From: Corallococcus coralloides
GTDB taxonomy: Bacteria > Myxococcota > Myxococcia > Myxococcales > Myxococcaceae
Assembly: GCF_044792175.1 (NCBI RefSeq)
Contig: NZ_CP172866.1
Reading direction: 5' to 3' (one strand)
Length of the DNA stretch: 64,000 bases
The notes beneath the pieces are model-generated. The model was not told the origin of the DNA. It saw only the letters and a list, made by a program, of their open reading frames with translations, and searched no databases. Of the stretch, positions 5,082 to 58,886 are shown piece after piece. Made by a program: the position numbers and the translations under genes. Within the stretch, counting starts at the first letter, position 1. Every line of letters starts with the position of its first letter.

Positions 5082-5214
5082 CCTAGACGAGGCGCGAAAG
5101 AGGGGGCGCCCGCATCGCTGGGTGTTGAGAAGGGGGCGCTTGCGTCCGCCTGCCCGGCCGGGCAGGCGGTGGTTCTCGTTGGAAGCGTCAGGGCCTTTGA
5201 TAGGTTGCCGCCCC

Positions 5215-6231: not shown

Positions 6232-6240
6232 GGCGCCACC

Positions 6241-7935: not shown

Positions 7936-7939
7936 GCCG

Positions 7940-8905
7940 CTACGGCGCGCTCGTGCCGGGAGGCTCGGGCGACGTCTGGAACATGCCCGCGAGGATGCGC
8001 TCGGCCGCGTCCGCGAGCAGGTCCCGGGCCATGCGCGTCTCCTCGCCGAAGATGCCGCGCGACGTGTTCGCGTCCAGCACGTGCGTGGCCAGCAGCGCGA
8101 ACGCGGAGGGCTCGTCGAACGTCGCCTCCGACGACAGCACGCGCTTGCCGGGCTGTTGATCCTCTTCGTGGAAGCGCCCCTCCCACGTGTCGCCCAGGGT
8201 GATGGAGAAGTACTGCGCCGCCACGTTGCCGGGCCGCGACATGTGCGACGCGGCCACCACGGCGCGCAACTGGCCGCGCTCGTCCCCGGTCATCTCGCGT
8301 TTCCACGCCTCGACGGAGGCGTGCATGGTGTCGATCTGATCCCTCGCCGCGTCCTCGGCGTTCTTCATGAGGTCCGGCACCCGGGCGTGGATGAACGCGG
8401 AGAGCTCCGCCTGCGTTACCCGGTTCGCCGCCAGCACGCCGTCCACGAGCGCGAGCGACGCGTCGAGCAGGCGCTGCTGCCGCGCCAGCGCCTCGGCCGG
8501 AAGCCCCCGGCCTTCCAGGCTCGCGCGGGAGGCGGTGATGAGGCCGCGCAGGGTGAGGAGCCGCGTGCGCGTGTCGTCATCGAGCGCGCCCTTGCCGGCG
8601 AGCAGGACGTGGAGCGCGAGCGGCACGTGGGTGACGGCCTTGTACACGTGGTAGCGGCGCGTGCGCGCGGGCGCCTCGAAGCGCTGGCCGCCCTTGCGAA
8701 GGATGAGCACGTCGTCGATCTGCGCGATGACGGGCCCCATGCGGGACAGCACGGCGTCACGGCGCGCGGCGTACGCGTCGCGGAACGCCTGGTTGAGCAC
8801 GGAGATCGGATCCGCGGGCTCGAGCGCCACGCTTCGCGCGACCTCGGACGGCGGCTCGGGAGGAGGGGAAGGGGAGGCGGGACCAGCCACGGGGCACTCG
8901 GCCAT
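7940..8905 (-). CDS. conserved hypothetical protein
   Basis: Long ORF with coding-like composition and no recognisable motif. The start was chosen at MAECPV (8905). An alternative start at 8974 would abut the inferred terminator hairpin. Confidence 0.5.
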   Translation of the reverse strand: MAECPVAGPASPSPPPEPPSEVARSVALEPADPISVLNQAFRDAYAARRDAVLSRMGPVIAQIDDVLILRKGGQRFEAPARTRRYHVYKAVTHVPLALHVLLAGKGALDDDTRTRLLTLRGLITASRASLEGRGLPAEALARQQRLLDASLALVDGVLAANRVTQAELSAFIHARVPDLMKNAEDAARDQIDTMHASVEAWKREMTGDERGQLRAVVAASHMSRPGNVAAQYFSITLGDTWEGRFHEEDQQPGKRVLSSEATFDEPSAFALLATHVLDANTSRGIFGEETRMARDLLADAAERILAGMFQTSPEPPGTSAP

Positions 8906-37493: not shown

Positions 37494-37511
37494 GCGGAAA
37501 GCCCTTCAAGG

Positions 37512-40500: not shown

Positions 40501-41816
40501 TGGCCACGCTGGGCCTGCGCACGCTGGCGAACCTCCTGCTGCGGGGGCTCGCGTCGCTTTTGCCCTTCATCCTGCGCCCGCTGCCGGCGGCGCGGCTGGG
40601 CAACTACCTGCAGCAGTTGTCCACGCTCAACTCGCTCATCCGCATCTACTACTTCGCGGACATCACCAAGCTCACCTGGGCGACGCTGGTGTCCACCAAC
40701 ATGGCGGAGCGCTCGCGCAGCGACTACGCCAGGAGCCTGGCGCGCGGCTACTACGGCACGCTCCTGTTCGGCGCGGGGCTGCTCGGCCGCGCGCGCTACC
40801 ACTGCGAGAAGGCGCTGGAGTACGCCCGGCGCTCCAAGGACCCCGTGGCGGAGGGGCTCGCGCTCAGCCGCCTGGGCATCCAGGCCTTCTTCGCCAACGA
40901 GCTGGAGCGCGCGAGAGAGTTCCAGGAGGAGGCCGTCTCCACGCTGCGCCAGGTGGGCGAGCGCTGGGAGCGCCAGACGTCGCTGATGATGCAGGCCACG
41001 GGCGAGTTCCTCCACTCGCGCTTCCGCGCCGCGGTGGCGCTCTACGAGCAGATGGGGGCCATTGGCGTGGAGCTCAACGCGCTGATGCACCAGGGCTGGG
41101 CGCACTCGTGGGCGCCCATGTGCCGCTACCTCATGGGCGAAGGCGACGTGGGCGAATTGTGCGCGGAGCTGGAGCAGGGCCTGCGCATCAGCGTGGAGGT
41201 GGCGGACCTGGCCAACCAGTGCGCCAGCCTGAACCACCTGGCCAACGTCACGGTGCGCGAGCACCAGGTGGAGGAGGCGGCGCTCGTCGCGGTGCGCTGC
41301 TTCAAGAGCATCTGGAGCTACCAGGTGATGGTGCCCTTCCTCCAGGTGGGGCTGGTGGACGCGGCGGAGGCGGCCCTCTTCGCGCTGGAGGAGGGCGCCA
41401 CGGTGGTGCCGCGCAAGAAGCTGCTGAAGATCGTCAAGCTGGCGTGCATCAAGGCGCGCGTCATCGCCCGGCTCTATCCGTACCTGAAGGGCCCGGCGCT
41501 GCGCGTGACGGCGCGCTCGCTGGCCCTGCGCAAGGGGCCGAAGGCCGCGGAGCCGGTGTTCCTGGAGGCCATCGCCGTCCTGGAGAAGAGCCCCAACCGC
41601 TGGGAGACGGGCGTGGCCTACTTCGACGCGGCGGTGGCCCTGCCGCACCGGCGCGAGGACTTCCTCGCCCGGGCGCGCGCCATCTTCACGGAGGTGGAGG
41701 CCCGCGCGGAGCTGCGCCGCGTGGACCGCTTCCAGGCCACGCTCCAGGCCCCGCCGGCCCCGGCGCTCGTCGCCGTGCCCCAGGCCTCCCAGGTCCGTGA
41801 CGCTCGCGTGATGTGA
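37512..41816 (+). CDS. tandem class-III adenylate/guanylate cyclase domains + STAND/AAA P-loop NTPase + TPR repeats
   Basis: Cyclase domain 1 (ILLLDIAGFTP...IYQFAGDSILACF). Cyclase domain 2 (FRDVTCFFVRF...LMTDFTDKGNVLYVLFGAP...GEVVNMAARL). Walker A GEAGIGKS. Walker B LLFFEDLHWAD. C-terminal TPR/MalT-like helical repeats. Confidence 0.85.
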   Translation: MPSTQPIDPAVAMLAPYMPAAILARLGSQEADALPRAEGVRGAILLLDIAGFTPIVVGLSGAGPRGIDALQRLLTNYYTEMIDVVRDHGGDIYQFAGDSILACFEAAPGEADADVVQRAAVCALGVQRRLARFARLELLGQRFGVSSRIGIGFGEATRIVMGATGLWMHPALVGEPLAQAVGAEKQATVSEVVLSPRAWAALPESARKGEPREGGNHRLALDAPVESVKRPLPAPTGGAELVGRCALLLHPVLFTKITTAHQEFAGDFRDVTCFFVRFTHAQPDADPDTFTRDLNAYYEYVQRESAHHGGVLLMTDFTDKGNVLYVLFGAPTAQQNKEVLACRLACKLLKAREQFPFLDELQIGIATGHAYCGDMGSPTRKGYSALGEVVNMAARLMTHGGRQDGVHLCANTQARSQQGGFATEFVEDAKLKGVSRSVPVYRLLGETRRGLFIKGRGDIIGRSRELNVLHASLNAAFAGQGRVCVVSGEAGIGKSRLGARVLEDAEEGGARALYGVCYSYEAFTPFFPWKEVLLQAFGLHDSDDTDAQLARLRQGLEGLEDVGPEWIPVVAGILGMSLEETSATAGMDARRKQQKVFQLVFQLLEKLSRAQPLLLFFEDLHWADYISLDLLQYLAVRVGSHRIMVLATMRPGDQLRGLRDLPEFIPLDLVSLDDEDTRALLRVHLRLSPPDVALEDRLLAKVQGNPFFIESIVEGLAEQGYLGPVEPGSPRMELKRGLQDLLLPDSIQDVVLSRIDLLSETEKLVVKVASVIGRIFTLDAVAALVPTLGHAMLREAMDTLQRLGLILLETEEPYTCLFKHIVIRDVAYNTLLVSAREDLHRRLARYLEARANDNLAGSAGLLAFHFLAGNVEDKGLEYTLMAARSARAQYANDDALYHYNRGLELLGTVVPVDPEATLLQTRRVMQELAETLLQAGDYANAILMFEQCLVDEEEPPRQAELHLGLGRAHQEKGESALATQHLEKSLVLRGRSLPGNLATLGLRTLANLLLRGLASLLPFILRPLPAARLGNYLQQLSTLNSLIRIYYFADITKLTWATLVSTNMAERSRSDYARSLARGYYGTLLFGAGLLGRARYHCEKALEYARRSKDPVAEGLALSRLGIQAFFANELERAREFQEEAVSTLRQVGERWERQTSLMMQATGEFLHSRFRAAVALYEQMGAIGVELNALMHQGWAHSWAPMCRYLMGEGDVGELCAELEQGLRISVEVADLANQCASLNHLANVTVREHQVEEAALVAVRCFKSIWSYQVMVPFLQVGLVDAAEAALFALEEGATVVPRKKLLKIVKLACIKARVIARLYPYLKGPALRVTARSLALRKGPKAAEPVFLEAIAVLEKSPNRWETGVAYFDAAVALPHRREDFLARARAIFTEVEARAELRRVDRFQATLQAPPAPALVAVPQASQVRDARVM

Positions 41817-41896
41817 CGCGCCGGACGCGCATTCCTTGTCCCGTCAGGCGGGGCCCCTAGACTGCGTGCTTCTTCCTCGACCTCCGCACCGGGCTC

Positions 41897-42727
41897 ATGA
41901 ACACCGCGCCGCTCCGCTTCCAGCTCAGTCCCGTCATCGTCGTCTACATGCTCGTGGTCCACGGCCTGGCCGCGCTGGCGTTCATCCTGCCCTGGCCGCC
42001 GTACGCGCTGCCGGTGGCGCTGGCCGTGTACGTGTCCATTGGCCTGGGCACGACGGTGGGGCTGCACCGGCTCTTGTGCCACCGCGCCTTCGCGTGCCCC
42101 CGCTGGGTGGAGTACGCGCTGGTGACGGTGGCCATGCTCACGGCGCAGGGCAGCCCGCTGCTCTGGGCCGCCAACCACCGGCTGCACCACGCGAAGGCGG
42201 ACGCGGACGGGGACGTGCACTCGCCGGTGCGCGGCTTCTGGTACGCGCACATGGGGTGGATCCTCAACGAGGCCTCCACGGAGGAGGACGGCTGGCGCAC
42301 CTGGTGCCGCGACATGGCGGACGACGGCTACTACCACTGGCTCTTGCGCTACCGCATCGCGCCGCAGGTGCTCGCGGTGCTCTTCGTGGGGCTGACCTTC
42401 GGCTGGCGCACGGTGCCCGCGTACTTCTTCCTGCCCGTGGTGTGCTGGATGCAGAGCACCTACGCGGTGAACTCCGTGTGCCACGCCGCGTTCGGACACC
42501 GCGACCATGACACGCGCGACCACAGCCGCAACGTGTGGTGGGTGAGCGTGCTCGCGCTGGGCGAGGGCTGGCACAACAACCACCACGCCTTCCCCGCGTC
42601 CGCGCGGCACGGCTGGGTGTGGTGGCAGTGGGACCCGGGCTGGCTCTTCATCCGGGCGCTCCAGGCGCTGGGGCTGGCGTGGGACGTGCGCCTGCCGTCC
42701 CGGCTCAGGTCAGGACCTGCGGCGTGA
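41897..42727 (+). CDS. acyl-CoA/acyl-lipid desaturase (stearoyl-CoA desaturase-like)
   Basis: His boxes HRLLCH, HRLHH, HNNHH. Four TM segments. Confidence 0.85.
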   Translation: MNTAPLRFQLSPVIVVYMLVVHGLAALAFILPWPPYALPVALAVYVSIGLGTTVGLHRLLCHRAFACPRWVEYALVTVAMLTAQGSPLLWAANHRLHHAKADADGDVHSPVRGFWYAHMGWILNEASTEEDGWRTWCRDMADDGYYHWLLRYRIAPQVLAVLFVGLTFGWRTVPAYFFLPVVCWMQSTYAVNSVCHAAFGHRDHDTRDHSRNVWWVSVLALGEGWHNNHHAFPASARHGWVWWQWDPGWLFIRALQALGLAWDVRLPSRLRSGPAA

Positions 42728-44120
42728 GGCCCAGCGCGGGCATCCGCTCCGCGTCCCACGCCTCAATGGCGTCCAGCCCCGCGATGTAGCGGCGCTCCGG
42801 GTTCTTCACCGGGTTGCGGATGCTGACGATTTCCGGCCCGGAGAAGAGGATGGTCTGCTTGTAGCGGGGCAGGTCGCTCATCATCAGCTTGGATGCGTAG
42901 TGCCGCGCGATGTTGGGCAGGCTGCCCAGCGTGCGGCACAGCCGCTGGAAGTGCTCCACCACCTCCGACGCGTGCATCTGCTTGGGCCGGTGGCACAGCG
43001 TGTAGCCGTCGTAGTCGCGGCTGGTGGTGCCGGGCAGGAGCCGGTCCTCGGCCTTCAGCTCGCGGAAGAAGGGCGTCTCCGGATACGGGCACACGATGCC
43101 CAGGAACGTGACGGAGAAGTACTTCAGGTCCGCCAGGTAGTCCGGCAGCCGGTGCAGGTACTCGTTGGTGTCGCCGTCCGAGCCGACGATGAGCCCGAAG
43201 GACAGCAGGATGCCGGCGGAGAAGACGCGGCGGATGACGGCGTCCACCTCCGACAGCTTGTTCTGGCCCTTGTTCATCGCCTTGAGCGAGTCCGGGTTGA
43301 GCGACTCCAGGCCGGTGTAGACGTAGCGGCAGCCCGCCTTCGCCATCAGCTTCACCAGCGACTCGTCCTTGAGCACGTTGAAGGTGAGCGCGCAGCCCCA
43401 CGTCTTCTTCAGGGGGATGAGCGCCTCGCACAGCGCGCGCAGGTACTTGGGCGAGCCGCCCAGGTTGTTGTCCAGGAAGACGAACGCGTCCCCCATCAGC
43501 CCCAGGAAGTTCGGGTTCCAGCGCATGCGCGTCTGGATTTCGTCGATGACCTCCGGGATGGGCCGGAAGCGGTAGCGCTCGTGGCCGGTGAGCACGCAGA
43601 AGTTGCACGTGAAGGGGCAGCCGCGCGACGCCTCGATGCCCGGCAGGCGCACCTTGTTGTGCGTGAAGTCGATGAGCTCGTAGCGGTACGGCCGGATGGC
43701 CGCGGCGCCCTGCGACGGCAGGCTGTAGCGGGGCTTGAGCTCACCCTTCTCGAAGTCCGCGATGAGCGCCGGCACGTTGGACTCCGGCTCCCCGGTGATG
43801 ACCGCGTCGAAGTACTTCGCCGCGTCGTCCGGGAAGTGGCTCGCGTGCCGGCCTCCCGCCACCGTCGTCATTCCGCGCTGACGGAAGAGGGTGGAGAGCA
43901 CCTTGGTGTGCTCGTAGTACGAGTGCAGGTACGAGAAGAAGACCAGGTCCCAGTGCCGGTCCAGCGGCAGGTCCGCCTCCTTCTCGTTGAAGATCTCCAC
44001 CTCGGCGTGCTCCGGGCACAGGCCCGCGATGAGCTCCGGCACGGAGGACTGCATGATGGAGGGTTCCTTGATTCGCAGCCGGGTCGGATGGGTGTACGTG
44101 GCGATGATGGCGATGCGCAT
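42705..44120 (-). CDS. B12-binding-domain radical SAM protein (class B rSAM)
   Basis: N-terminal B12-binding-like region. CxxxCxxC cluster (SRGCPFTCNFCVL). The 3' end overlaps the desaturase 3' end by 23 nt on the opposite strand. Confidence 0.85.
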   Translation of the reverse strand: MRIAIIATYTHPTRLRIKEPSIMQSSVPELIAGLCPEHAEVEIFNEKEADLPLDRHWDLVFFSYLHSYYEHTKVLSTLFRQRGMTTVAGGRHASHFPDDAAKYFDAVITGEPESNVPALIADFEKGELKPRYSLPSQGAAAIRPYRYELIDFTHNKVRLPGIEASRGCPFTCNFCVLTGHERYRFRPIPEVIDEIQTRMRWNPNFLGLMGDAFVFLDNNLGGSPKYLRALCEALIPLKKTWGCALTFNVLKDESLVKLMAKAGCRYVYTGLESLNPDSLKAMNKGQNKLSEVDAVIRRVFSAGILLSFGLIVGSDGDTNEYLHRLPDYLADLKYFSVTFLGIVCPYPETPFFRELKAEDRLLPGTTSRDYDGYTLCHRPKQMHASEVVEHFQRLCRTLGSLPNIARHYASKLMMSDLPRYKQTILFSGPEIVSIRNPVKNPERRYIAGLDAIEAWDAERMPALGLTPQVLT

Positions 44121-44343: not shown

Positions 44344-46131
44344 ATGGATACTTCTCCTTCGCCAGCCGCCCCGGGTTGGCCGTTTAAGCGTTACTTCTGG
44401 ATTTCCATCGTGCTCGCGGTGGCGCTGGGCGCGACGGCGTTGCGCTCGGGGTTCATGCCGGATGACTTCATCTGGCTGGGCGTCTGGGACAACATTCCGC
44501 CGCCCGCGCCGCTGGGCAACACGCACCTGGACGTGTACCGCACGGCCACCGGCATCCCGGAGCACACGCTGCGTCTGGCGGAGGTGGGCGTCTTCCCGTG
44601 GTGGGTGGAGCCCACCGTGCGCGTCGCGTTCTTCCGGCCCCTGGGCAGCCTGCTCTACGGGCTGGATCACGTGCTCTACAACCGCGTCGCCGTGGCCTAC
44701 CAGTTCCACTCGCTGCTCTGGTACGTGGGCCTGGTGGCGGTGGCGGGCCTGCTGCTCAAGCGCGTGCTGCCCACGGCGGTGGCGGGCGTGGCGATGGTCC
44801 TCTTCGCCCTCTGGGGCTCCCACGCGGCGGTGCTGGGCTGGCTGTCCTACCGCAGCGTGGTGATGTCGCTGCTCTTCGGCATCCTCGGCATCTTCCTGCA
44901 CGTGAAGTGGCGGGAGGAGAAGCGCACGGGCGCGCTGGTGGGCGCGCTGGTGTCCTTCGCGCTCGCGCTCCTCTGCGGTGAGACGATGGTCATCCTCAGC
45001 CCGTACGTGCTGGCCTACGAGGCCTTCTCCGGCCCGGGGCAGGCGAAGGACAAGCTCAAGGGGCTCATCCCGTTCGGCGTGCTGATGGCCCTCTACTTCG
45101 CGGCGTACCGGGCCATGGGCTACGGCGCGGGCGGCTCGGACATGTACCTGGACGCGCTGGGGACGCCGGTGGCGTGGTTCCAGGCGATGCTCGGGCGCGT
45201 GCCGGCCGCCATCGCGGGGCTGACGCTGAACGCGCCCCCGGACTTCATCTTCGATCAATCCCTGGTGCCCCTCTTCACCGTCCTGGGCGCGGTGGGCTTC
45301 ACGCTGTTCGCGCTGCTCGTGTGGGGCGTGTGGCCCCGGCTGGAGGCCGCGGAGAAGCGCACGGTGGGCTGGATGCTGACGGGCGCGTTCGTGTCCACGT
45401 GGCTGTCCAACTCCGCCTTCGCCGGCTCGCGCACGCTCATCGTGCCCAGCCTGGGCATGGCGGTGGGCCTGGCCGTGGTGCTGCGCCACGCGTGGAAGGG
45501 GCGGGCGCTCAAGCTCCGCGCGGGCGCGGTGGTGGCCGGCGCGGCGGTGATGGCCCTCATCCACGTCGTGGGCTCGCCGTACCTCTGGTGGCAGACCATG
45601 GAGCAGTACTCGCAGGCGGACGCGCTCATGGGGCGCGTGCAGGCGCGCTACGAGGAGGCGTTCGATCAGACGAAGCTCCCCAACCAGCGCGTGGTGGTGC
45701 TCAACGCCCCCAACGGCATCATCGGCATCTACGGCTCCGTGCGCTGGTGGTCCTCGGGCAACCCCCTGCCGAAGGCCTGGTGGGTGCTGTCCTATTCGCT
45801 CCACGAGCAGAAGGTGACGCGCACCGGCCCCAACTCGCTGGAGCTGGCGCTCACCCGGGGCGGCCACTTCCTGGACTCCGTGGAGGAGCGCATCCACCGC
45901 GCCGCGCGCCACCCGGTGCGCCAGGGCGACGAGTTCGACATGAAGGGCATGAAGGTGCGGATCGAGGAGGCGGACGCGCAGGGCCCCACGCGCATCTCCT
46001 ACACCTTCGACGTGCCGCTGGAGGACCCGTCGCTGAAGCTGGTCCAGTGGCAGAACAAGAAGGTGGTGCCCTGGGTGCCGCCGGCCGTGGGCGGGCCGCC
46101 GTCCGCCCTCAACGTCCGGGCCGTGCAGTAG
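44344..46131 (+). CDS. large polytopic membrane protein (about 12 TM) with C-terminal soluble domain; function unknown
   Basis: Hydrophobicity pattern and strong coding bias. Divergent from the rSAM gene. No diagnostic motif. Confidence 0.6.
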   Translation: MDTSPSPAAPGWPFKRYFWISIVLAVALGATALRSGFMPDDFIWLGVWDNIPPPAPLGNTHLDVYRTATGIPEHTLRLAEVGVFPWWVEPTVRVAFFRPLGSLLYGLDHVLYNRVAVAYQFHSLLWYVGLVAVAGLLLKRVLPTAVAGVAMVLFALWGSHAAVLGWLSYRSVVMSLLFGILGIFLHVKWREEKRTGALVGALVSFALALLCGETMVILSPYVLAYEAFSGPGQAKDKLKGLIPFGVLMALYFAAYRAMGYGAGGSDMYLDALGTPVAWFQAMLGRVPAAIAGLTLNAPPDFIFDQSLVPLFTVLGAVGFTLFALLVWGVWPRLEAAEKRTVGWMLTGAFVSTWLSNSAFAGSRTLIVPSLGMAVGLAVVLRHAWKGRALKLRAGAVVAGAAVMALIHVVGSPYLWWQTMEQYSQADALMGRVQARYEEAFDQTKLPNQRVVVLNAPNGIIGIYGSVRWWSSGNPLPKAWWVLSYSLHEQKVTRTGPNSLELALTRGGHFLDSVEERIHRAARHPVRQGDEFDMKGMKVRIEEADAQGPTRISYTFDVPLEDPSLKLVQWQNKKVVPWVPPAVGGPPSALNVRAVQ

Positions 46132-46166: not shown

Positions 46167-46177
46167 CCGGGCCTGCT

Positions 46178-47203
46178 TCAGCCCACCATCCGCACCACCG
46201 CCAGCGTGAGCCCGTAGACGATGACGGACACCAGCGCGGCGGCGGGGATGGTGAACACCCACGCCCAGATGATGCGGCCGGCGGTGCCCCACTTCACGGC
46301 CCGCCAGCCGCGCGTGGACCCCACGCCGACGATGGCGCCGGTGATGGTGTGCGTGGTGGAGACGGGGATGCCCAGCTCCGCCAGCGCGATGATGGTGACG
46401 CCGCCGCCCGTCTCCGCGCTGAAGCCGCCAATGGGCGCCAGCTTCGTGAGGCTGTGGCCCATGGTGCGGATGATGCGCCAGCCGCCGAAGAAGGTGCCCA
46501 GCGCGATGGCGGCGTGGCAGGAGATGATCATCCACCAGTCGATGTGGAACGGCCGGTCGCGCCAGATGGTGCCGAAGAGCACCACCGCGATGATGCCCAT
46601 GACCTTCTGCGCGTCGTTGGTGCCGTGGCTGAAGGAGAAGATGGCGGACGACACCAACTGCAGCCGGCGGAACCAGGTGTCCACGCGCAGCGGCGTCTGA
46701 CGGTGCACCGCCCAGGTGCTGGCCAGCATCATCCCGATGCCCAGCGTCATGCCGATGAGCGGCGACAGCACGATGAAGGCCGCGATGCGCGCGATGCCAC
46801 TGCCCACCAGGCCCTCGAAGCCCAGCACGGGGAGCGTGGCGCCAATCATCCCGCCCGCCAGCGCGTGCGACGACGACGAGGGCAGCCCCCACCACCAGGT
46901 GAGCAGGTTCCAGACGATGGCGCCCATCAGCGACGAGAAGATGACCATCAGCACCGCGGTGGGGCCGGCGGCGCGGAGCATCTCGAAGTTGATGATGCCC
47001 TTGCCCATGGTGTTGGCCACGTGCACGCCGCCCGCGAAGGCCGCCACGAAGTTGAAGAACGCGGCCCACGCCACGGCCAGGTTCGGCGACAGCACGCGCG
47101 TGGACACCACGGTGGCGATGGAGTTCGCCGCGTCGTGGAAGCCGTTGATGAAATCGAAGATGAGCGCGACGACGACGATGGTGACGACCGCTGCGAGCAG
47201 CAT
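46178..47203 (-). CDS. pitA: inorganic phosphate transporter, PiT family
   Basis: Duplicated PiT signature (GFHDAANSIATVVSTRVL and FSHGTNDAQKVMGII). Confidence 0.9.
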   Translation of the reverse strand: MLLAAVVTIVVVALIFDFINGFHDAANSIATVVSTRVLSPNLAVAWAAFFNFVAAFAGGVHVANTMGKGIINFEMLRAAGPTAVLMVIFSSLMGAIVWNLLTWWWGLPSSSSHALAGGMIGATLPVLGFEGLVGSGIARIAAFIVLSPLIGMTLGIGMMLASTWAVHRQTPLRVDTWFRRLQLVSSAIFSFSHGTNDAQKVMGIIAVVLFGTIWRDRPFHIDWWMIISCHAAIALGTFFGGWRIIRTMGHSLTKLAPIGGFSAETGGGVTIIALAELGIPVSTTHTITGAIVGVGSTRGWRAVKWGTAGRIIWAWVFTIPAAALVSVIVYGLTLAVVRMVG

Positions 47204-47204
47204 C

Positions 47205-47831
47205 TCAGCTATGCTCCAGCACGACGCCTTCGATGACGTTGGCCACGCCCTGGCACTTGTCCGTGGCCGTCTCGATGAGGTCGTAGATCTCCTTCCACTT
47301 GATGATGGTCAGGGTGTCCACGCCGCTCTTGAACAGCCGGCCCATGCCCGCGCGCAGGACCTCGTCCGCCTGGGTCTCCAGGTGCTTGATCTCCTTGCAC
47401 CCCGCGAGGATCTGCTCCGGCTTCTTGATGAGCCGCAGCGCCGCGACGACCTCCTGCACCTTGCGCGTGGAGAGCACCAGCAGCCGCGCCAGCTCCGTGG
47501 CGTCCTCGCGGCTGGACTCAATCTCGTAGTAGAGCAGCCGCGCCGCCGCCGCGTTGGTCAGGTCCAGCACGTCGTCGATGCGCGACAGGAGCGTGTGGAT
47601 CTGACCCCGGTCGAACGGGGTGATGAACTGCTGGTGGAGCCGGTTGAAGGCCGTGTGGGTGACCTCGTCGCCCCGGTGCTCCACGTCCTTGAGGGCCTGG
47701 ACTCGCGCGGGCACGTCCCGGAAGTCGCTCAAGAGGTCGTGCAGGAGCTTCGCTCCCTCGACAGTTCTGGCGCATTGCGCGTCGAAGTCGTCGAAGAACT
47801 CGTCCGACTTCGGCATCAGCTTTTCGAGCAT
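47205..47831 (-). CDS. DUF47/PhoU-like phosphate-transport regulator co-transcribed with pitA
   Basis: Helical DUF47 pattern. Stop is 1 nt before the pitA start. Confidence 0.8.
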   Translation of the reverse strand: MLEKLMPKSDEFFDDFDAQCARTVEGAKLLHDLLSDFRDVPARVQALKDVEHRGDEVTHTAFNRLHQQFITPFDRGQIHTLLSRIDDVLDLTNAAAARLLYYEIESSREDATELARLLVLSTRKVQEVVAALRLIKKPEQILAGCKEIKHLETQADEVLRAGMGRLFKSGVDTLTIIKWKEIYDLIETATDKCQGVANVIEGVVLEHS

Positions 47832-48009
47832 GGGGATCTCCCTCGGCGCCTGGAGGGACAGGAGCTGTCCGCCGCGGGAGGTGGGTGGCGCCTCTGGAGG
47901 GGTGACACTCCCGTGACGCGGGAGTGAGTACCCTACCTGGAGAGATTCGCCAGTGTTCCGTGCGAAAACGTACGGATTCCGAGGGGTTGTGCTTGACGCG
48001 AGGCGCCGC

Positions 48010-48672
48010 TCAGACGACGCGGTTGCGCAGCTCCTCGAAGAATCCCACCCACAACTGCCACATCTCCTCGGCGCCGCGCGTGATGGTGGCCAGCTCCGCG
48101 TCCGTGTACTGGAGGCCCACCGTGTGGCCGGCCGTCTCCACGTGGTCCGGCTCCTGCTTCACGTGGATGTCCACCCAGGGCAGGGCCTTGAGGCCCGTGG
48201 TGCGGCGCACCAGCTTGCCCAGCTTGGCCACCATGGTGAGGTCCGCCACCTCCGTGCCATAGAGGAAGCCCAGGCCCGTGAGGTGGCTGTCCGTGGAGCG
48301 CTGGTAACCGTCGATGAGCCGGCGCGTCGCGGGCGTCATGTCCGCCTCGGACACGCCCGCCTTCGTGAAGCCCGCGTCCGTCATCGTCTGGATGAAGAAG
48401 CGCTCGTGCGCCCTCGCCGGGTCTCCCTCGCCCACCTCCTGGTTGAGGATGTGCGTCACCGCCGTCTTCATCTCCATCTGCGGACAGACGGCGATGAGCT
48501 TGCCCAGGAAGGTGGGGAAGTAGTGCAGGGGGTGCCACCACTGACCCAGCACCATCTCCGCCTGTTCGCGGCTGAAGGCCTTCTCATCCACCACCTCGAA
48601 GAACCGGTGCTTGATCAACTGCTCTCGGTGGGAGTTCTTCGCCAGTGCCGCCTCGATGGTCTGGTTCCGCAT
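48010..48672 (-). CDS. heme-oxygenase-like / TenA-PqqC-fold 'iron-containing redox enzyme family' protein
   Basis: All-helical 220-aa protein with conserved Glu/His-bearing helices (HILNQEVGEG..AHERFF, LYGTEVAD, HVKQEPDHVE). Confidence 0.55.
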   Translation of the reverse strand: MRNQTIEAALAKNSHREQLIKHRFFEVVDEKAFSREQAEMVLGQWWHPLHYFPTFLGKLIAVCPQMEMKTAVTHILNQEVGEGDPARAHERFFIQTMTDAGFTKAGVSEADMTPATRRLIDGYQRSTDSHLTGLGFLYGTEVADLTMVAKLGKLVRRTTGLKALPWVDIHVKQEPDHVETAGHTVGLQYTDAELATITRGAEEMWQLWVGFFEELRNRVV

Positions 48673-48891
48673 TGCCGCCTCCAGGTGGGTCCAAAAGGGC
48701 TGGGTCGGCGTTTATCACAAAGCAGGACTGAGATTCTTGGAAATATAGAAAGACAAGTTCAGCATGACTACGTGGTTTACCGCCAGTGTGGAACGTGCAG
48801 GCAGGCGAGGGTGGGCTGTTCGGCGTGGGGGCTGACAGCCTACAGTTGGAAAATCGGCATTTTCTCCCTGGCCCCCTTGTACGGAAGACGC

Positions 48892-49776
48892 ATGACCCTG
48901 TTCCGGCACCCTGAAGATCGCATCCCGGTCCTGATGTTCCTTGGCGTCTTCGCGCTCGACATGACGGTGTTCCTCACGGCGCGAAGCTGGTGGGTACCGG
49001 TGCTGTGGTTCGGGCTGGGCATCATCCCCAAGGGGTGGATCTGCTCGTGGAACCACCACCACCAGCACCTGTCCTTCTTCAAGCACGCGCTGCCCAACCG
49101 GCTCCTGGAGATCGTCTTCGGCTTCCAGACGGGCGTGACGTCGCAGGCGTGGTTCCTCCACCACGTGCTGGGCCACCACAAGAACTACCTGGACCAGTCG
49201 CAGGACGAGTCGCGCTGGAAGCGGGAGGACGGCTCGACGATGGGGGAGGTGGAGTACTCGCTGGGCACGGCGCTGACCGCGTACCCGCGCGCGTTCCAGG
49301 TGGGCCGGAAGCACCACCCCAAGGCGCTGCGCACGTTCGTGGTGATGGCCGCGCTCCAGGTGGTGCTGCTGGCGGGCCTGTTCTGGGTGAACCCCTACAA
49401 CGCGCTCTTCGTGTTCCTGCTGCCCATGATGGCGTCGCTCTACGTGACGACCTGGGCCACGTACTTCCATCACGTGGGCCTGGACACGGCGAACCACTCG
49501 GAGGCCTCGTACAACATCCTCCACAAGGGCTACAACCTGATGACGGGCAACCTGGGCTACCACACCGCGCATCACACGCGGCACGGCCTGCACTGGTCCA
49601 AGCTGCCGGAGCTGCACGCGCAGTTGGCGCGCGACATCCCCGCGAACCTGTACCGCCAGCCGGGCATCCCGTTCGTCTGGCGCGGCTCCGAGGAGAAGCT
49701 GGTGCTGAGCGAGCACGAGGTCGCCGCGCTCACCGGCGGGCCCGTGGAGGGCCGCGGGGAGAAGCTGGCCGCCTAG
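48892..49776 (+). CDS. membrane fatty-acid-desaturase/hydroxylase-superfamily protein (three His boxes)
   Basis: WNHHHQH, HHVLGHH, HTAHHTRH. TM segments. The start is the internal Met of ORF 47953..49776. Confidence 0.7.
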   Translation: MTLFRHPEDRIPVLMFLGVFALDMTVFLTARSWWVPVLWFGLGIIPKGWICSWNHHHQHLSFFKHALPNRLLEIVFGFQTGVTSQAWFLHHVLGHHKNYLDQSQDESRWKREDGSTMGEVEYSLGTALTAYPRAFQVGRKHHPKALRTFVVMAALQVVLLAGLFWVNPYNALFVFLLPMMASLYVTTWATYFHHVGLDTANHSEASYNILHKGYNLMTGNLGYHTAHHTRHGLHWSKLPELHAQLARDIPANLYRQPGIPFVWRGSEEKLVLSEHEVAALTGGPVEGRGEKLAA

Positions 49777-49803
49777 CGGTCCCGCCGTCCCCGCTGCAAG
49801 CCC

Positions 49804-49829
49804 CCGCCGGAAGCGCTCCCTTCCGGCGG
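49804..49829. terminator. bidirectional hairpin (ccgccggaag-cgctcc-cttccggcgg) between two convergent genes
   Basis: Perfect 10-bp stem seen directly. Confidence 0.45.
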
Positions 49830-49846
49830 CGGGGTTCGACGGACGG

Positions 49847-51265
49847 CTACTTCGGCTGCTGCGGCTCCGTCGTGCGGTTCGCCGCGAGGCTGATGACGTT
49901 GAGGAGCAGGTCCTTCACGCGGCGGGGCTTGTTGCCGCCGTTGTCCTCGATGATCTTCTCGATGTCGTCATCCTGCCGGTGGTACTCGGGGATGAGGTCG
50001 CCGCCGCCCTCGGGGTTGGACAGGCCCTCGAAGAGGAAGAGCACGTCCTCGCCCTTGCGCCCGAAGGACGCGCCGTCCTGCCGGTCGCGGTAGACGTTGA
50101 TGTCGCGGTTGATGCGGTCGAACGGATCCGCCAACTGCTGGTTCGCCTGGTCCACCACGTCGCGGAAGTAGTTGGGCTGGCCCTTGGTGTTGGTGTCCAC
50201 CACGGACAGGCGCTGATCATCCCAGCGGCCCACCATGTCCGTGTTGATGACGCCGGCGATGTTCTTCAGCTCCAGGCCGGGGATGGGGTGGTCCACGAAG
50301 TACTGCGAGCCCACCAGGCCCTTCTCCTCCGCGCCCGTCCAGATGAAGAGCACGGAGCGGTCCAGCTTACCGTTCTTCGCGGCCTCCGCCAGCTCCGGCA
50401 CCGCCGCCATCAGCACCGCGCTGCCGGACGCGTTGTCGTCCGCGCCGTTGAAGGGGTTGCCCTTGCGGTCCACGCCCACGTGGTCCAGGTGGGCCATCAC
50501 CACGATGACCTCGTCCTTGTGGGGGCCCGTGCCGGGCAGCATGGCCATGGTGTTCACCGCCTGGCCCGTGGCCGTGGCCACCTGCTGGAGCTCCTCCACG
50601 CTGCGCTGCTTGCCCGCGCGCGCCGGCACCACCGACTGGCCCGCCGCCTTCATCGTCTGCTCGTACTGCTGGTTGAGCCGCTTCAGCGTGTCCTTGGGCA
50701 TCTTCTCGTCCAGGTAGAAGCCCTCCTGGAAGAGCGTGTGGCCGAACTCCTTGTGCTCGGCGTGGGCTCCGGCCGTCTCGCCCGCCTTGTCCGCGCCCAG
50801 CCAGGAGTAGACCTTGAACTTCTGCTGGAAGGGGTTCTCCGGGTTGTTGATGTTGGGCCCCACCAGCCCGTACTTCTCCGCGTGGGCCTGCACGTAGACG
50901 GAAGCGGCGTCCAGGCCCGCGGAGGGGCTGTCACGCCCCTGCAGCGCGTCCGAGGCCAGGTACTCGAGGTGAGTCATCGGGTCCGAGTCGGCCGACACGG
51001 GCGGCTCGGTGGGCGCCTCCGGCGGCACGGGCGTCGTCGGCGCGGGCGTCGGGGTGGTGGGCGCGGGCAGCCCCAAAATCGGCGGCGGCGCGGGCAGCCG
51101 GGGCAGTTGGCCGGGCGCGGGGCGCGTGCCGCCGGAGGACTCGAAGCCGTCCTTCCAGGCGATGGGGCGGTTCCGGGACTTCGCCTCCGTCGTCCGGGCG
51201 TCCTGCGAGGACAGCCGCGAGACGGAGGTGAGGGGACGCGAGCTGTCGTTGATCTTCGAGGCCAT
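49847..51265 (-). CDS. M28-family zinc aminopeptidase with low-complexity Pro/Thr-rich N-terminus
   Basis: M28 blocks (VIVVMAHLDHVG, GADDNASGSAVLM, FIWTGAEEKGLVGSQ, DMVGR). Confidence 0.8.
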   Translation of the reverse strand: MASKINDSSRPLTSVSRLSSQDARTTEAKSRNRPIAWKDGFESSGGTRPAPGQLPRLPAPPPILGLPAPTTPTPAPTTPVPPEAPTEPPVSADSDPMTHLEYLASDALQGRDSPSAGLDAASVYVQAHAEKYGLVGPNINNPENPFQQKFKVYSWLGADKAGETAGAHAEHKEFGHTLFQEGFYLDEKMPKDTLKRLNQQYEQTMKAAGQSVVPARAGKQRSVEELQQVATATGQAVNTMAMLPGTGPHKDEVIVVMAHLDHVGVDRKGNPFNGADDNASGSAVLMAAVPELAEAAKNGKLDRSVLFIWTGAEEKGLVGSQYFVDHPIPGLELKNIAGVINTDMVGRWDDQRLSVVDTNTKGQPNYFRDVVDQANQQLADPFDRINRDINVYRDRQDGASFGRKGEDVLFLFEGLSNPEGGGDLIPEYHRQDDDIEKIIEDNGGNKPRRVKDLLLNVISLAANRTTEPQQPK

Positions 51266-56762: not shown

Positions 56763-56975
56763 GTCACCCGCGCGATCTGAAGTCCGCGAATTGCGCGGAC
56801 TCTCATAATGTGGTCAGTTTGAACCGATGAGGTGTTCTCCTCCCAACCCTTTCCTGGCTTCACCATCTCCGCGTGGCGGAGCGCTGGCGGCGTCGGGAAG
56901 GGTGGGGCGCGCGGGCCCGCGCGTGAGGATACCTGCTCCCTTTCCTCCCCCCGACTGCCTCCGGCCTCGTCTTCC

Positions 56976-58886
56976 ATGAACCGCTCAATCCTGCTGAAGA
57001 GCGCGTGGTGCGCCCTGCTGGTGCCCCTGCTGTCCTGCAACCTCCTCAAGGTCACTGACGACGAGGGGTCCACGACGGGCCGCGGTGCCAAGCGGTTCGA
57101 CCCCTACCAGGGCCTCAACTCCGGCGCGATCCGGCTGAGCCTCCAGTACATCAACGGCTGCGCCTTCCTGCCCAACGGGCAGATGGTGGCGAAGAACAGC
57201 GTGACCCCGGGGTATCCGGACACGTGCATCACGCCGCTCGCGCAGAACCCGCTGACGCTGTCGCCTCCCACCGGGACGCTGCAGATCCTGTCGGACACGC
57301 AGTACTTCCTGAACCAGTTCTCCGTGTCGGAGACGGTGGTCAACCAGCACAACAACCCCAACGACCAGACCGCCGCGCTGGCGTGGATCAAGAACCAGTC
57401 CGTGTTCTCCGGCCTGGACTGGACCAACGTCAACCAGGGCCCGGACGAGTGGAGCTTCTACAGCCTCGCGGGCGCGGTGGAGGACTGCTGGACCCGCGAG
57501 GTGCAGTTCGGCAACGCGAACTGGCAGAAGGTGAAGGACGACACCATCACCGTGGAGGTGCTGGACGAGACGGGCACCCCGCGCGCGAGCCAGACGTACC
57601 TGCGCTCGGAGCTGCTGGCCTCCTCGCCCTACGCCGGCCACAGCCGCTTCTCCTGGCGCTCGGAGAACCTGAAGCCGCCGCGCTTCCCCGGCGACAAGGA
57701 CCCCGGCACCGTGACGGGCTTCGCGGGCGGCCTGGACCAGAGCGCCATCACGCGCACCATCGCGCGCGTGGACTGGGTGGGCAGCACCAACCCCTTCAAG
57801 GTGCTGCGCGTGCCGCGCCTGTCGGGTCCCGGCGCGCTCCGGGCCACCTGGAGCCAGTTGCCGCACAAGCCGTTCTACTTCCCCGTCACGTACATCATCC
57901 CGGATGACCGCCCGTCCACCTGCACGGACGACGCCGGCAACCCGGTGCAGTGCAGCCCGGGCCTGGACTCGCGGCTGGTGTTCTCGCCCCCGAAGGAGGG
58001 CAGCTTCTACAAGCCTGGCGAGGACGTGAGCGTCTACGTGGACCTGCGCGACAGCGCGGGCGCGCACCTGCACTCGCGCGACCTGCTGCCCAGCGCGCGG
58101 GAGATCATCGGCGGCCAGTCCAACGGCATCCAGACCTTCGTCCCCAACGTCATCGCGACCGTCACGGAGAACGACTCCATCTCCAACGTGGCCATCGCCG
58201 GTCCCATCCAGGACCTGAAGGTGCTGGGCAACCCCAGCGACAAGCCCGAGTTCTTCGCGCGGCCGTTCCCGTTCGCCATGCTGGATGACGCCACGCTCAC
58301 GGGGCTGACGCCGGGCCTCATCGACTACAAGTGGCCCACCCGCCAGACGTTCACGCTGCCCGCGAACGCGAAGCCGGGCACCTACGTGGCGCTGGTGAAG
58401 TTCAACCGCGCGGCCCTGGGCGAGCGCGTCGCCAAGCTGAACCCCTTCTTCTTCCAGGTGGGCCAGGACGAGCCCACGACGTACCCGGGCAACGTGGGCA
58501 ACTGCCAGATCTGCCACCGCGGCGTGCTGTCGCTGGACAACCTGCGCCACGGCCTGTCGGTGGACCACATCGAGAGCTGCAAGGTCTGCCACCACTACGA
58601 CACGGACACGGTGGGCCGCACGCAGGAGATGGTGCACCGCATCCACATGAACTCGCCCAGCTACCCGGCGAACCGCGCGGACTGCACCGTGTGCCACCTG
58701 ACGCGCAAGAGCACGGAGCGGCCCAGCCTGGCGCTGTGCGGCTCGTGCCACATCTCCCAGCACGGGGACGAGTTCTTCCAGATCGCCTTCAACCAGCGCG
58801 GCACGCCCAGCCGGTTCGGCAACTGCGCGCAGACCTGCCACGGCGGCGAGCAGCTCCCCGCCCGACACATCCTCCCCGCGAAGTAG
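56976..58886 (+). CDS. multiheme c-type cytochrome lipoprotein (five CxxCH/CxxxCH motifs in the C-terminal third)
   Basis: Lipobox LLSCN. CQICH, CKVCH, CTVCH, CGSCH and CAQTCH. Confidence 0.7.
   Translation: MNRSILLKSAWCALLVPLLSCNLLKVTDDEGSTTGRGAKRFDPYQGLNSGAIRLSLQYINGCAFLPNGQMVAKNSVTPGYPDTCITPLAQNPLTLSPPTGTLQILSDTQYFLNQFSVSETVVNQHNNPNDQTAALAWIKNQSVFSGLDWTNVNQGPDEWSFYSLAGAVEDCWTREVQFGNANWQKVKDDTITVEVLDETGTPRASQTYLRSELLASSPYAGHSRFSWRSENLKPPRFPGDKDPGTVTGFAGGLDQSAITRTIARVDWVGSTNPFKVLRVPRLSGPGALRATWSQLPHKPFYFPVTYIIPDDRPSTCTDDAGNPVQCSPGLDSRLVFSPPKEGSFYKPGEDVSVYVDLRDSAGAHLHSRDLLPSAREIIGGQSNGIQTFVPNVIATVTENDSISNVAIAGPIQDLKVLGNPSDKPEFFARPFPFAMLDDATLTGLTPGLIDYKWPTRQTFTLPANAKPGTYVALVKFNRAALGERVAKLNPFFFQVGQDEPTTYPGNVGNCQICHRGVLSLDNLRHGLSVDHIESCKVCHHYDTDTVGRTQEMVHRIHMNSPSYPANRADCTVCHLTRKSTERPSLALCGSCHISQHGDEFFQIAFNQRGTPSRFGNCAQTCHGGEQLPARHILPAK

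Follow-up and report, generated by a model that had tools for sequence, protein, structure and literature searches.

Heme-oxygenase-like dimetal oxidases that modify amino acids, such as BesC (4-chloro-allylglycine synthase), HrmI, PolF and SznF, have an E / H / E / H-x3-E-x2-H pattern of metal ligands and are encoded in natural-product clusters. Their fold is also that of UndA and of CADD (CT610), a Fe-Mn p-aminobenzoate (pABA) synthase in which Tyr27 is a sacrificial residue. UndA and UndB, the latter a membrane enzyme of the desaturase family, are alternative 1-alkene-forming enzymes and are not known to act as partners. In a 64,000-nucleotide stretch of Corallococcus coralloides DNA (hereafter the window), a gene for a heme-oxygenase-like protein (HDO) lies divergently beside a gene for a membrane protein of the fatty-acid-desaturase family (DES). 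A first-pass annotation, drawing on the UndA/UndB analogy, had read the two as a pair with a common AT-rich promoter. We arrive at a different reading, to which we give a probability of about 0.72: the locus consists of two independent genes side by side, an old membrane desaturase and an orphan cassette of an NRPS/PKS-associated HDO clade, with its own predicted promoter.

Gene content of the locus

Both open reading frames were recovered as first described, together with the 219-bp spacer from which they diverge (48673-48891), and Pfam matched the neighbours that had been called pitA and PhoU-like to PHO4/Pit and PhoU_div/DUF47 (Table 1). The latter two form a tight two-gene unit, with 1 nt between the ORFs, which is context and lies outside the feature itself. 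The gene order SLT-orf270-M28-DES-HDO-PhoU_div-Pit is common to eight Corallococcus loci. Comparison within the genus indicates purifying selection on both genes, dN/dS being 0.05-0.20 for HDO and 0.21-0.35 for DES at similar dS. The window encodes two desaturases, which are not paralogous to one another. No NRPS or PKS gene was detected among the window genes scanned with Pfam (a subset of the genes), nor in a survey of gene sizes over the window.

Table 1. Coordinates of the HDO and DES genes, their neighbours and the associated non-coding features in the window
Feature	Position	Strand	Description
PHO4-family phosphate transporter (PHO4/Pit)	46178-47203	minus	Pfam PF01384
PhoU_div (DUF47)	47205-47831	minus	Pfam PF01865
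PhoU_div-Pit upstream region	47832-47992	minus	In block 46175-47992, 90% identical to HDO-less BB11-1
Indel cassette, ~820 bp	47993-48812	.	HDO ORF and AT-rich upstream island; ~56 bp instead in Corallococcus sp. BB11-1
HDO	48010-48672	minus	220 aa; heme-oxygenase-like dimetal oxidase, PF14518
AT-rich core of HDO promoter/operator region (predicted)	48708-48780	minus	Lowest GC; kept in all eight HDO-bearing Corallococcus loci
17-nt motif TTCTATATTTCCAAGAA, candidate operator	48734-48750	minus	Contains first TTGGAAA; upstream of HDO in three genera
DES own upstream region	48813-48891	plus	Second TTGGAAA at 48846-48852; stays with DES in BB11-1, which is without HDO
DES	48892-49776	plus	294 aa; membrane di-iron fatty-acid-desaturase-family protein, PF00487

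Fold and predicted metal ligands of HDO

HDO matches PF14518 over residues 41-208 (E 1.1e-27, 97.4 bits, cut-off 28.9). Its AF2 model is made up of helices throughout (pLDDT 90.8, pTM 0.89), and the top Foldseek matches of this model are CADD, BesC, UndA, PolF and HrmI, with a probability of 1.00 and query-normalised TM of 0.66-0.81; the heme-oxygenase-like fold proposed at first reading is thereby borne out. Six predicted ligands, E79, H89, E141, H170, E174 and H177, do not vary among 34 sequences with identities down to 37%, and align with the E/H/E/H-x3-E/D-x2-H positions of BesC and of the pABA synthase 9pj4. The first-pass annotation had asked whether the site is of the 3-His/3-carboxylate or of the TenA/PqqC type: all six ligands are there in the alignment. 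By fold and alignment, HDO is thus assigned as a heme-oxygenase-like dimetal oxidase with the full 3-His/3-carboxylate set.

Two other family assignments were considered and rejected. Neither PF03070 (TenA) nor a PqqC NCBIfam model matches HDO at E<=0.01, the metal-ligand set is instead complete, and TenA structures, 10-11% identical to HDO, stand below the dimetal HDOs in the Foldseek ranking; neither TenA nor PqqC is known to have the six-ligand metal site, which shows no variation in HDO. As for a CADD-type pABA synthase, HDO scores 44.6 bits against TIGR04305, whose cut-off is 200, and profile alignment places F26-Y27 of CADD on F24-F25 of HDO, so that the equivalent of Tyr27 is Phe25, a residue that never varies in a 32-sequence alignment and is conserved to at least 90% in one of 34 sequences. 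Homologues of HDO are annotated in their sources as 'TenA family' or 'PQQ biosynthesis protein C'.

DES is an old enzyme, probably of lipid metabolism

DES matches PF00487 (E 1.7e-29, 103.8 bits, cut-off 29.7) and carries the His boxes H55-x3-H59, H91-x3-H95-H96 and H224-x2-H227-H228. In 32 homologues of 54-85% identity, no substitution occurs at H55/H57/H59, H90/H91/H95/H96 or H224/H227/H228, which agrees with the three-His-box membrane di-iron protein of the earlier description. The AF2 model (pLDDT 92.6) displays the long helix pairs 7-29/34-57 and 119-141/143-166; its best match in the PDB is AlkB (8sbb; TM 0.56, E 1.6e-3), SCD1 being weaker (TM ~0.35). No NCBIfam equivalog was found for DES, the best model being DesA at E 0.058.

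A protein search retrieved DES orthologues with 72-78% identity from Myxococcus, Pyxidicoccus, Cystobacter, Archangium and Hyalangium, and orthologues span the Myxococcaceae and Archangiaceae without HDO: DES is a vertically inherited, old and probably lipid-modifying enzyme that is independent of HDO. In Myxococcus and Pyxidicoccus parkwayensis the orthologue stands last in a lipoxygenase-lipoxygenase-P450-desaturase cluster, and for this reason O2-dependent desaturation of acyl chains is the most likely role of DES. The M. xanthus counterparts (MXAN_1744/1745) of the lipoxygenase genes beside the Myxococcus orthologue are characterised LOXs (PMC5760719); a search of the literature for a characterised M. 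xanthus orthologue of DES turned up only this lipoxygenase paper.

HDO and DES are not co-conserved

Co-conservation across relatives had been named beforehand as the test of a functional HDO/DES pair, and it fails both ways. Firstly, Corallococcus sp. BB11-1 has DES but no HDO, and so do two MAGs, Pyxidicoccus parkwayensis, Myxococcus, Cystobacter and Archangium; outside HDO-bearing Corallococcus, HDO is present in 0 of 7 DES contexts. Secondly, all 80 metagenome loci have HDO but no DES, as do Citreicoccus, Pyxidicoccus caerfyrddinensis, a Flavobacterium, an archaeon and Acidobacteriota. Adjacency of the two genes was found in the eight Corallococcus loci only; none of the 80 metagenome loci shows it, nor do several MAGs, BB11-1, Citreicoccus, Myxococcus, Cystobacter, Archangium or either Pyxidicoccus species. 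Since HDO and DES are phylogenetically uncoupled in this manner, the inference of a pair fails. Likewise, nothing ties the two to phosphate starvation, a link that had been suggested from the neighbouring genes: PhoU_div-Pit is self-contained and keeps its own upstream region without HDO.

In BB11-1 (locus L108) the gene order is PHO4, PhoU_div, DES, with no HDO, and the blocks that blastn aligns between the window and this locus stop at 47992 and restart at 48813. When the edges of the ~820-bp cassette so delimited were searched for terminal repeats and duplicated target sites, only weak GC-rich matches came up. In Citreicoccus, HDO-PhoU_div-Pit is kept and DES is absent, the divergent neighbour being a 481-aa putative FAD/NAD(P)-binding oxidoreductase, so called from its GxGxxG motif only, which does not match the FAD/NAD-binding protein encoded close to HDO in the Flavobacterium. 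Citreicoccus also has, ~5 kb from HDO, a gene that is thiD-like by its sequence only. The arrangement in Pyxidicoccus caerfyrddinensis is HDO-MFS_3-NRPS. A different FA_desaturase gene, accompanied by ACP and acyl-CoA dehydrogenase genes, is located ~5 kb from HDO in this species, and this neighbourhood raises the faint possibility of an acyl-chain substrate for HDO.

The AT-rich element travels with HDO

The spacer has a GC content of 0.562, versus 0.711 for the window, a level to which just 0.25% of 219-bp windows fall. The 52-mer quoted in the first-pass annotation (48712-48763) has a GC content of 0.365, and the core region listed in Table 1 is the sole place in 64 kb reaching that value, so the AT-rich island described there is the lowest-GC stretch of the window. 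A sigma-70-like sequence, TAGTCA-17-TATATT, runs from 48770 to 48742 and faces HDO; it is the sole match in 47700-49950, where 0.1 is expected. The two copies of TTGGAAA that had been pointed out are present (48737 and 48846), both inside the spacer and the only ones in the whole window, but their number is by itself not significant, because 0.88 copies are expected over the window and 22 of 100 shuffles contain at least two. Citreicoccus (L020) and Pyxidicoccus (L009) also carry the 17-nt candidate operator ahead of HDO, in both cases without DES nearby; no further copy is found in the window, even allowing 2 mismatches. We detected no Rfam RNA element in the spacer and no terminator-like site in the 178-bp gap between HDO and PhoU_div.

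The idea that the island is a promoter shared by the two genes is not supported. BB11-1 lacks, along with HDO, the first TTGGAAA and the AT-rich part, and the DES-proximal ~80 bp stays. The DES-proximal and the HDO-proximal parts of the spacer are set apart by an additional ~120 bp in C. llansteffanensis and CA053C. As the AT-rich part goes with HDO, the DES-proximal ~80 bp goes with DES and the motif recurs without DES, sequence comparison does not support a single regulatory region common to both genes. The divergent arrangement is stable in eight Corallococcus species, and local co-regulation is therefore formally possible.

The HDO clade is associated with NRPS/PKS genes

HDO belongs to a large, sequence-coherent clade of ~230-aa proteins, for which a protein search gave about 1000 matches at E<=0.001, the best 120 sharing 49% identity or more with HDO; its members are mostly from soil Acidobacteriota. 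In a search of 5.8 billion proteins, only four clusters exceed 58% identity to HDO, and the three with names are from Corallococcus and Pyxidicoccus caerfyrddinensis. The closest non-myxobacterial relatives (50-58% identity) are found in Acidobacteriota NRPS/PKS clusters from soil, and acidobacterial homologues of 51-53% identity adjoin giant NRPS genes in three distinct contexts (five loci). Two arrangements recur in the clade: PKS-LLM-HDO-NRPS, as at locus L022, and HDO divergent from lipopeptide-type NRPS genes; locus L024 reads NRPS-HDO-ATP-grasp. Among loci of the clade from soil metagenomes, NRPS/PKS genes adjoin HDO in 54 of 80, at a median distance of 309 bp, and they are near HDO in 19 of the 20 loci with at least 3 kb on both flanks and in all 9 with at least 5 kb. 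Desaturases, for which three types were searched, are near none of the 80 metagenome HDO genes, and the same is true of PhoU and Pit. Outside Corallococcus and Citreicoccus, members of the clade lie directly beside or inside NRPS/PKS genes. No description of an HDO from this clade came up in the literature searched.

Discussion

The neighbourhood of HDO and DES is most likely a matter of chance, and the pair reading is not supported. In the two-gene reading that we favour, HDO would form a monocistronic cassette of ~0.8 kb, composed of an AT-rich promoter/operator and the ORF, whose presence between PhoU_div and DES varies within Corallococcus and which would have been gained or lost separately from DES; the latter would keep a short upstream region of its own. 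O2 would be activated at a Fe2 or Fe/Mn site with E79, H89, E141, H170, E174 and H177 as ligands, and HDO would then oxidise an amino-acid-derived substrate, free or bound to a carrier, in the manner of BesC, HrmI, PolF and other HDOs. An amino-acid-derived substrate is proposed by guilt by association, because BesC, the closest HDO to have been characterised, shares only ~20% identity. The Corallococcus protein would be an orphan that lost, or never had, an adjacent synthetase, and it may act in trans or on an exogenous compound; a partner for it is hypothetical, since no NRPS/PKS gene is seen among the window genes scanned. More tentatively, the clade may catalyse a tailoring reaction new for heme-oxygenase-like dimetal enzymes; Corallococcus might then have taken over a stand-alone member of the clade, under a conserved operator of its own, and put it to use outside any cluster, for instance to make a building block in trans or to neutralise the metabolite of a competitor.

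Other explanations of the locus were weighed against this one. That HDO and DES form a functional pair with a shared AT-rich bidirectional promoter, devoted to an undescribed lipid or metabolite tailoring and possibly linked to phosphate starvation, we consider highly improbable: it draws on two O2-activating iron enzymes, on a divergent arrangement kept in eight Corallococcus species around the lowest-GC spot of the window and on the different desaturase ~5 kb from HDO in Pyxidicoccus caerfyrddinensis, but BB11-1 has DES and its upstream ~80 bp without HDO and the island, Citreicoccus and Pyxidicoccus carry HDO and its motif without DES, extra sequence of ~120 bp splits the spacer halves in two species, and the counts around HDO (0/80 for three desaturase types) and around DES (0/7 for HDO) are nil. 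A three-gene operon of HDO and PhoU_div-Pit, tied to phosphate or metal-phosphate uptake, is very unlikely. BB11-1, which has no HDO, retains PhoU_div-Pit with its entire 160-bp upstream region in a block 90% identical, PhoU_div or Pit is paired with the HDO clade in 0 of 80 metagenome loci, and DUF47-Pit pairs are a widespread stand-alone unit; these facts outweigh the common direction of the three genes, the HDO-PhoU_div-Pit order kept in Corallococcus and Citreicoccus and the 178-bp gap without a terminator-like site.

A role in cofactor metabolism, with HDO as a self-sacrificing pABA synthase of the CADD type or as a TenA/PqqC-type enzyme, is extremely unlikely. CADD is the top Foldseek match (8va9, TM 0.77), TIGR04305 matches weakly, source annotations name TenA and PQQ biosynthesis, and the thiD-like gene of Citreicoccus is ~5 kb off; yet the TIGR04305 score is far below its cut-off, HDO is only 15% identical to CADD and has Phe25 at the position of Tyr27, PF03070 and PqqC models give no match at E<=0.01, and the NRPS/PKS context of the clade is ill-fitting for a housekeeping cofactor enzyme. 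Finally, the orphan HDO might not supply a building block but serve as a stand-alone detoxifying or resistance enzyme, which would modify a non-proteinogenic amino acid or peptide from other soil bacteria, for example Acidobacteriota with the full cluster. A single-gene cassette with its own predicted promoter/operator and a presence/absence polymorphism would suit such a function, as would strong purifying selection despite the lack of an adjacent synthetase and the position of the closest non-myxobacterial relatives (50-58%) in Acidobacteriota NRPS/PKS clusters from soil. We nevertheless regard this as unlikely, the HDOs characterised so far being biosynthetic.

As the pair is not upheld, the locus gives no call to seek a joint HDO/desaturase pathway. 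The HDO clade, which is tightly tied to NRPS/PKS genes in soil Acidobacteriota, is a reasonable target for enzyme discovery, because HDOs have repeatedly given new amino-acid chemistry. HDO-plus and HDO-minus Corallococcus strains, whose loci are otherwise syntenic, offer a tractable natural experiment on the role of the orphan copy, and the myxobacterial DES orthologue that ends the LOX-LOX-P450 cluster is a candidate for supplying oxylipin precursors.

Compared with known systems, DES resembles the desaturase/AlkB superfamily (PF00487; SCD1 4ymk/4zyo, AlkB 8sbb) in its three invariant His boxes and, in the model, its paired, putatively transmembrane helices, its structural similarity to the solved members being moderate (TM 0.56 for AlkB, ~0.35 for SCD1). 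UndA has the HDO fold in common with the window protein (TM 0.72-0.75) at an identity of 12-13%; the UndA/UndB analogy meets here two genes that are phylogenetically uncoupled. CADD (PDB 1rcw, 8va9; TIGR04305) is the top structural match, of similar length and with an equivalent six-ligand site, but differs from HDO in sequence (15% identity; TIGR04305 score 44.6 vs 200) and in the replacement of the sacrificial Tyr27 by Phe25. BesC (PDB 7twa) is the best sequence match among solved structures, with a profile E of 8e-10 at only ~20% identity. Unlike BesC-type systems, the window HDO has no Bes-type partner genes nearby and is shorter, with 220 aa vs 257-340 aa; BesC, HrmI, PolF and SznF lie in natural-product clusters, as does the HDO clade, whereas the Corallococcus copy lies outside any cluster. 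It has in common with BesC the helical heme-oxygenase-like fold (TM 0.77-0.81), and with BesC and the other amino-acid-modifying HDOs (HrmI, PolF, SznF) the E / H / E / H-x3-E-x2-H ligand pattern.

Locus layout and the HDO protein

The first-pass annotation had described two divergent open reading frames, HDO (a heme-oxygenase-like dimetal oxidase gene) and DES (a three-His-box membrane desaturase-family gene), and gene coordinates, Pfam matches and a GC scan confirmed both, along with the AT-rich spacer of 219 bp between them (GC 0.562, against 0.711 for this high-GC myxobacterial window). The 52-mer that it had quoted has a GC of 0.365, and no other 52-bp stretch of the 64 kb is as low. TTGGAAA does occur twice in the spacer, with no third copy in the window, a count that is not unusual per window (reached in 22/100 shuffles). 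The phosphate-related neighbours are likewise present: a PhoU_div/DUF47 gene and a PHO4-family phosphate transporter gene (Pit) flank one side, and an M28 peptidase gene the other.

Features of the window (positions on the whole stretch)
Feature	Position	Strand	Description
Cyclase protein	37494-41816		1440 aa; adenylate/guanylate cyclase-AAA_16-TPR (Pfam scan)
Second desaturase	41861-42727	+	288 aa; unrelated to DES; top NCBIfam match DesA family, 96 bits, below cut-off
Radical SAM gene	42705-44120	-	B12-binding; converges with second desaturase, 23-bp overlap
Membrane protein	44344-46131		595 aa; no Pfam match
HDO ORF	48010-48672	-	220 aa; Pfam PF14518 (Haem_oxygenas_2), 97.4 bits
17-nt motif TTCTATATTTCCAAGAA	48734-48750	-	upstream of HDO, on the HDO strand
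DES ORF	48892-49776	+	294 aa; Pfam PF00487 (FA_desaturase), 103.8 bits
Cytochrome-like protein	56823-58886		687 aa; weak MtrC/MtrF-like outer-membrane cytochrome domain match (Pfam scan)

HDO, 96-98% identical to its Corallococcus counterparts, had been proposed to be a heme-oxygenase-like metal enzyme, the alternative being a TenA-like protein devoid of metal ligands. Its AlphaFold model, built from 32 homologues, is all-helical (pLDDT 90.8), and the first Foldseek matches in the PDB are CADD, BesC, a CADD-like Nostoc protein, UndA and PolF (query-normalised TM 0.66-0.81); TenA proteins rank below these dimetal oxidases, at 10-11% identity. By sequence, the closest solved relative is BesC (E 2e-4 with a single sequence, 8e-10 with a profile). 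Residues E79, H89, E141, H170, E174 and H177 are invariant in 34 homologues, down to 37% identity, and align to the ligands of BesC and of the p-aminobenzoate synthase 9pj4, which follow the pattern E / H / E / H-x3-(E/D)-x2-H. The fold holds a complete dimetal ligand set. Since the six ligand positions are invariant and dimetal oxidases lead the structural ranking, the TenA-like alternative falls, and HDO is a bona fide heme-oxygenase-like dimetal oxidase. Identity with CADD was rejected, as the TIGR04305 score is 44.6 for a cut-off of 200 and Phe25 aligns at CADD Tyr27; this Phe25 never varies among the 32 aligned sequences and is conserved to at least 90% when 34 are aligned. Two names found in the databases, 'TenA family transcriptional regulator' and 'PQQ biosynthesis protein C', are over-annotations.

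HDO and DES are not a unit

A search of 5.8 billion proteins gave very different distributions for the two proteins. Only four clusters exceed 58% identity to HDO, the three named ones coming from Corallococcus and Pyxidicoccus caerfyrddinensis, and below them lie hundreds of Acidobacteriota proteins at 49-58%. DES orthologues (72-78% identity) were recovered from Myxococcus, Pyxidicoccus, Cystobacter, Archangium and Hyalangium. The window synteny, SLT-orf270-M28-DES-HDO-PhoU_div-Pit-membrane protein-radical SAM, is common to eight Corallococcus loci. Beyond these, DES occurs without HDO in Myxococcus, Cystobacter, Archangium and Corallococcus sp. BB11-1, and HDO without an adjacent DES in Citreicoccus, P. 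caerfyrddinensis and all 80 metagenome loci described below, so the expected co-conservation fails.

The BB11-1 locus, ordered Pit, PhoU_div, DES, Macro-domain gene, M28, has no HDO between PhoU_div and DES. By blastn, window 46175-47992 corresponds to BB11-1 5055-6863 (90% identity) and the next aligned block starts at window 48813, BB11-1 6920; the HDO ORF and the AT-rich island, about 820 bp in the window, are thus replaced by about 56 bp. BB11-1 retains about 80 bp upstream of DES, including the second TTGGAAA, as well as the region upstream of PhoU_div. Because HDO and the island are missing jointly while DES and PhoU_div-Pit keep their own upstream sequence, HDO together with the AT-rich sequence upstream of it behaves like a one-gene cassette, and the island is probably not a promoter shared with DES.

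The core of the island, close to the start of HDO, is conserved in HDO-bearing Corallococcus, and the 17-nt motif also precedes the HDO genes of Citreicoccus and Pyxidicoccus, which have no DES next to them; no further copy with up to two mismatches exists in the window. The sole sigma-70-like consensus match in 47700-49950 (0.1 expected) lies within the island and faces HDO. Since core and motif follow HDO and this match faces it, the island is best read as HDO's own promoter/operator. No Rfam family matched the spacer. Between the island core and the DES-proximal part, C. llansteffanensis and strain CA053C have about 120 bp more; this extra sequence (L014/L018 spacer, about 7660-8000; alignment A1 columns 98-230) is GC-rich.

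Other differences were observed nearby. A Macro-domain gene (BB11-1 7914-8582) lies in the DES/M28 interval, without counterpart in the window (49736-49862), and the 595-aa membrane protein is missing from BB11-1 (4945-5055). The latter shows 64-92% identity among Corallococcus species, against 93-98% for its neighbours, and its gene is fast-evolving and variably present. As the Macro-domain, HDO and membrane-protein indels co-locate, the surroundings of DES are a hot spot of single-gene gain or loss.

Substitution rates were computed for the window against the Corallococcus loci most divergent from it. HDO (dS 0.35, dN 0.018-0.027, dN/dS 0.05-0.08) is under stronger constraint than DES (dS 0.27-0.30, dN/dS 0.32-0.35), and these rates indicate that both are functional genes that diverged along with their neighbours.

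DES and other lipid-related genes

The His boxes of DES, H55-x3-H59, H91-x3-H95-H96 (with H90) and H224-x2-H227-H228, are invariant in 32 homologues. Two long helix hairpins, apparently of the kind usual in membrane di-iron desaturases, are present in its model (pLDDT 92.6). Among solved structures AlkB, an alkane hydroxylase, matches best (TM 0.56), with SCD1 weaker, and no NCBIfam equivalog claims the protein. DES belongs to the membrane di-iron desaturase/hydroxylase family as an ordinary PF00487 member. In Myxococcus sp. SDU36 (L006 247-6846) and Pyxidicoccus parkwayensis (L008 379-6867), the orthologue closes a lipoxygenase-lipoxygenase(PLAT)-P450-desaturase cluster, its start overlapping the P450 stop; those of Cystobacter, Archangium and two MAGs have different neighbours, with no HDO nearby. 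Given the family and this LOX-P450 setting, acyl-chain desaturation is the most likely role of DES. In M. xanthus, the counterparts of the two lipoxygenases are a 12-LOX and an 11-LOX, as characterised in PMC5760719. An oxylipin pathway is suggested by the cluster, the desaturase being a possible source of the LOX substrate.

The second desaturase and the radical SAM gene (top NCBIfam match, sub-threshold, 'lipid biosynthesis B12-binding/radical SAM protein') are also adjacent in BB11-1 and, as a possible lipid-modifying pair, may deserve testing more than HDO-DES.

HDO homologues are associated with NRPS/PKS genes

In Citreicoccus inhibens (87% identity), the HDO-PhoU_div-Pit order is kept and the divergent neighbour is a putative 481-aa FAD/NAD(P)-binding oxidoreductase (GxGxxG motif only). 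In P. caerfyrddinensis (81%), HDO-MFS_3-NRPS-NRPS lie on a single strand. About 3-6 kb upstream of that group (L009 1518-5238), a free-standing ACP is accompanied by another FA_desaturase (332 aa, distinct from DES), an unknown protein of 358 aa and an acyl-CoA dehydrogenase; these proteins may tailor a lipid tail for the NRPS product. Giant NRPS genes are divergent from acidobacterial HDO homologues in the three distinct contexts looked up (five loci), and a Flavobacterium locus reads NRPS-HDO-ATP-grasp.

Scanning metagenome contigs with the HDO family alignment yielded 80 loci, which we queried by tblastn for NRPS, PKS, three desaturase types, PhoU_div and Pit. NRPS/PKS matches were found in 54 (median distance from HDO 309 bp), including 19/20 loci flanked by 3 kb or more on each side and 9/9 flanked by 5 kb or more; no desaturase of the three types and no PhoU_div or Pit was matched near HDO in any of the 80. 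HDO is physically associated with NRPS/PKS genes across its clade. The proposal of HDO and a desaturase as one lipid-tailoring unit is contradicted by these separate distributions and contexts: such a system is not real.

A luciferase-like monooxygenase was matched at 16/80 loci. An order of PKS (KS-AT-KR-ACP), luciferase-like monooxygenase, HDO and NRPS (C-A-T) recurs in L022, L065, L071, L079, L083 and L102, soil-metagenome and Polarisedimenticolia contigs with HDO-neighbour gaps under about 150 bp; in the Polarisedimenticolia MAG (L022 233-10077) the HDO-NRPS gap is 14 bp. No characterised pathway matched this arrangement.

Comparison with characterised oxidases

No NRPS/PKS appeared among the window genes in the Pfam scan, which covered part of the genes, or in a gene-size survey; the Corallococcus HDO is an orphan copy, which may serve a distant synthetase in trans or, alternatively, act on an exogenous compound. 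The interest lies in an uncharacterised NRPS/PKS-linked clade and in the comparison of HDO-plus with HDO-minus Corallococcus, rather than in the pair. HDO would activate O2 at an Fe2 or Fe/Mn site and oxidise an amino-acid-derived (or carrier-bound) substrate, the pattern followed by the characterised enzymes BesC, HrmI, PolF and MboA. HDO is a new, uncharacterised member of the superfamily: it shares about 20% identity with BesC and 15% with CADD, to whose family it does not belong.
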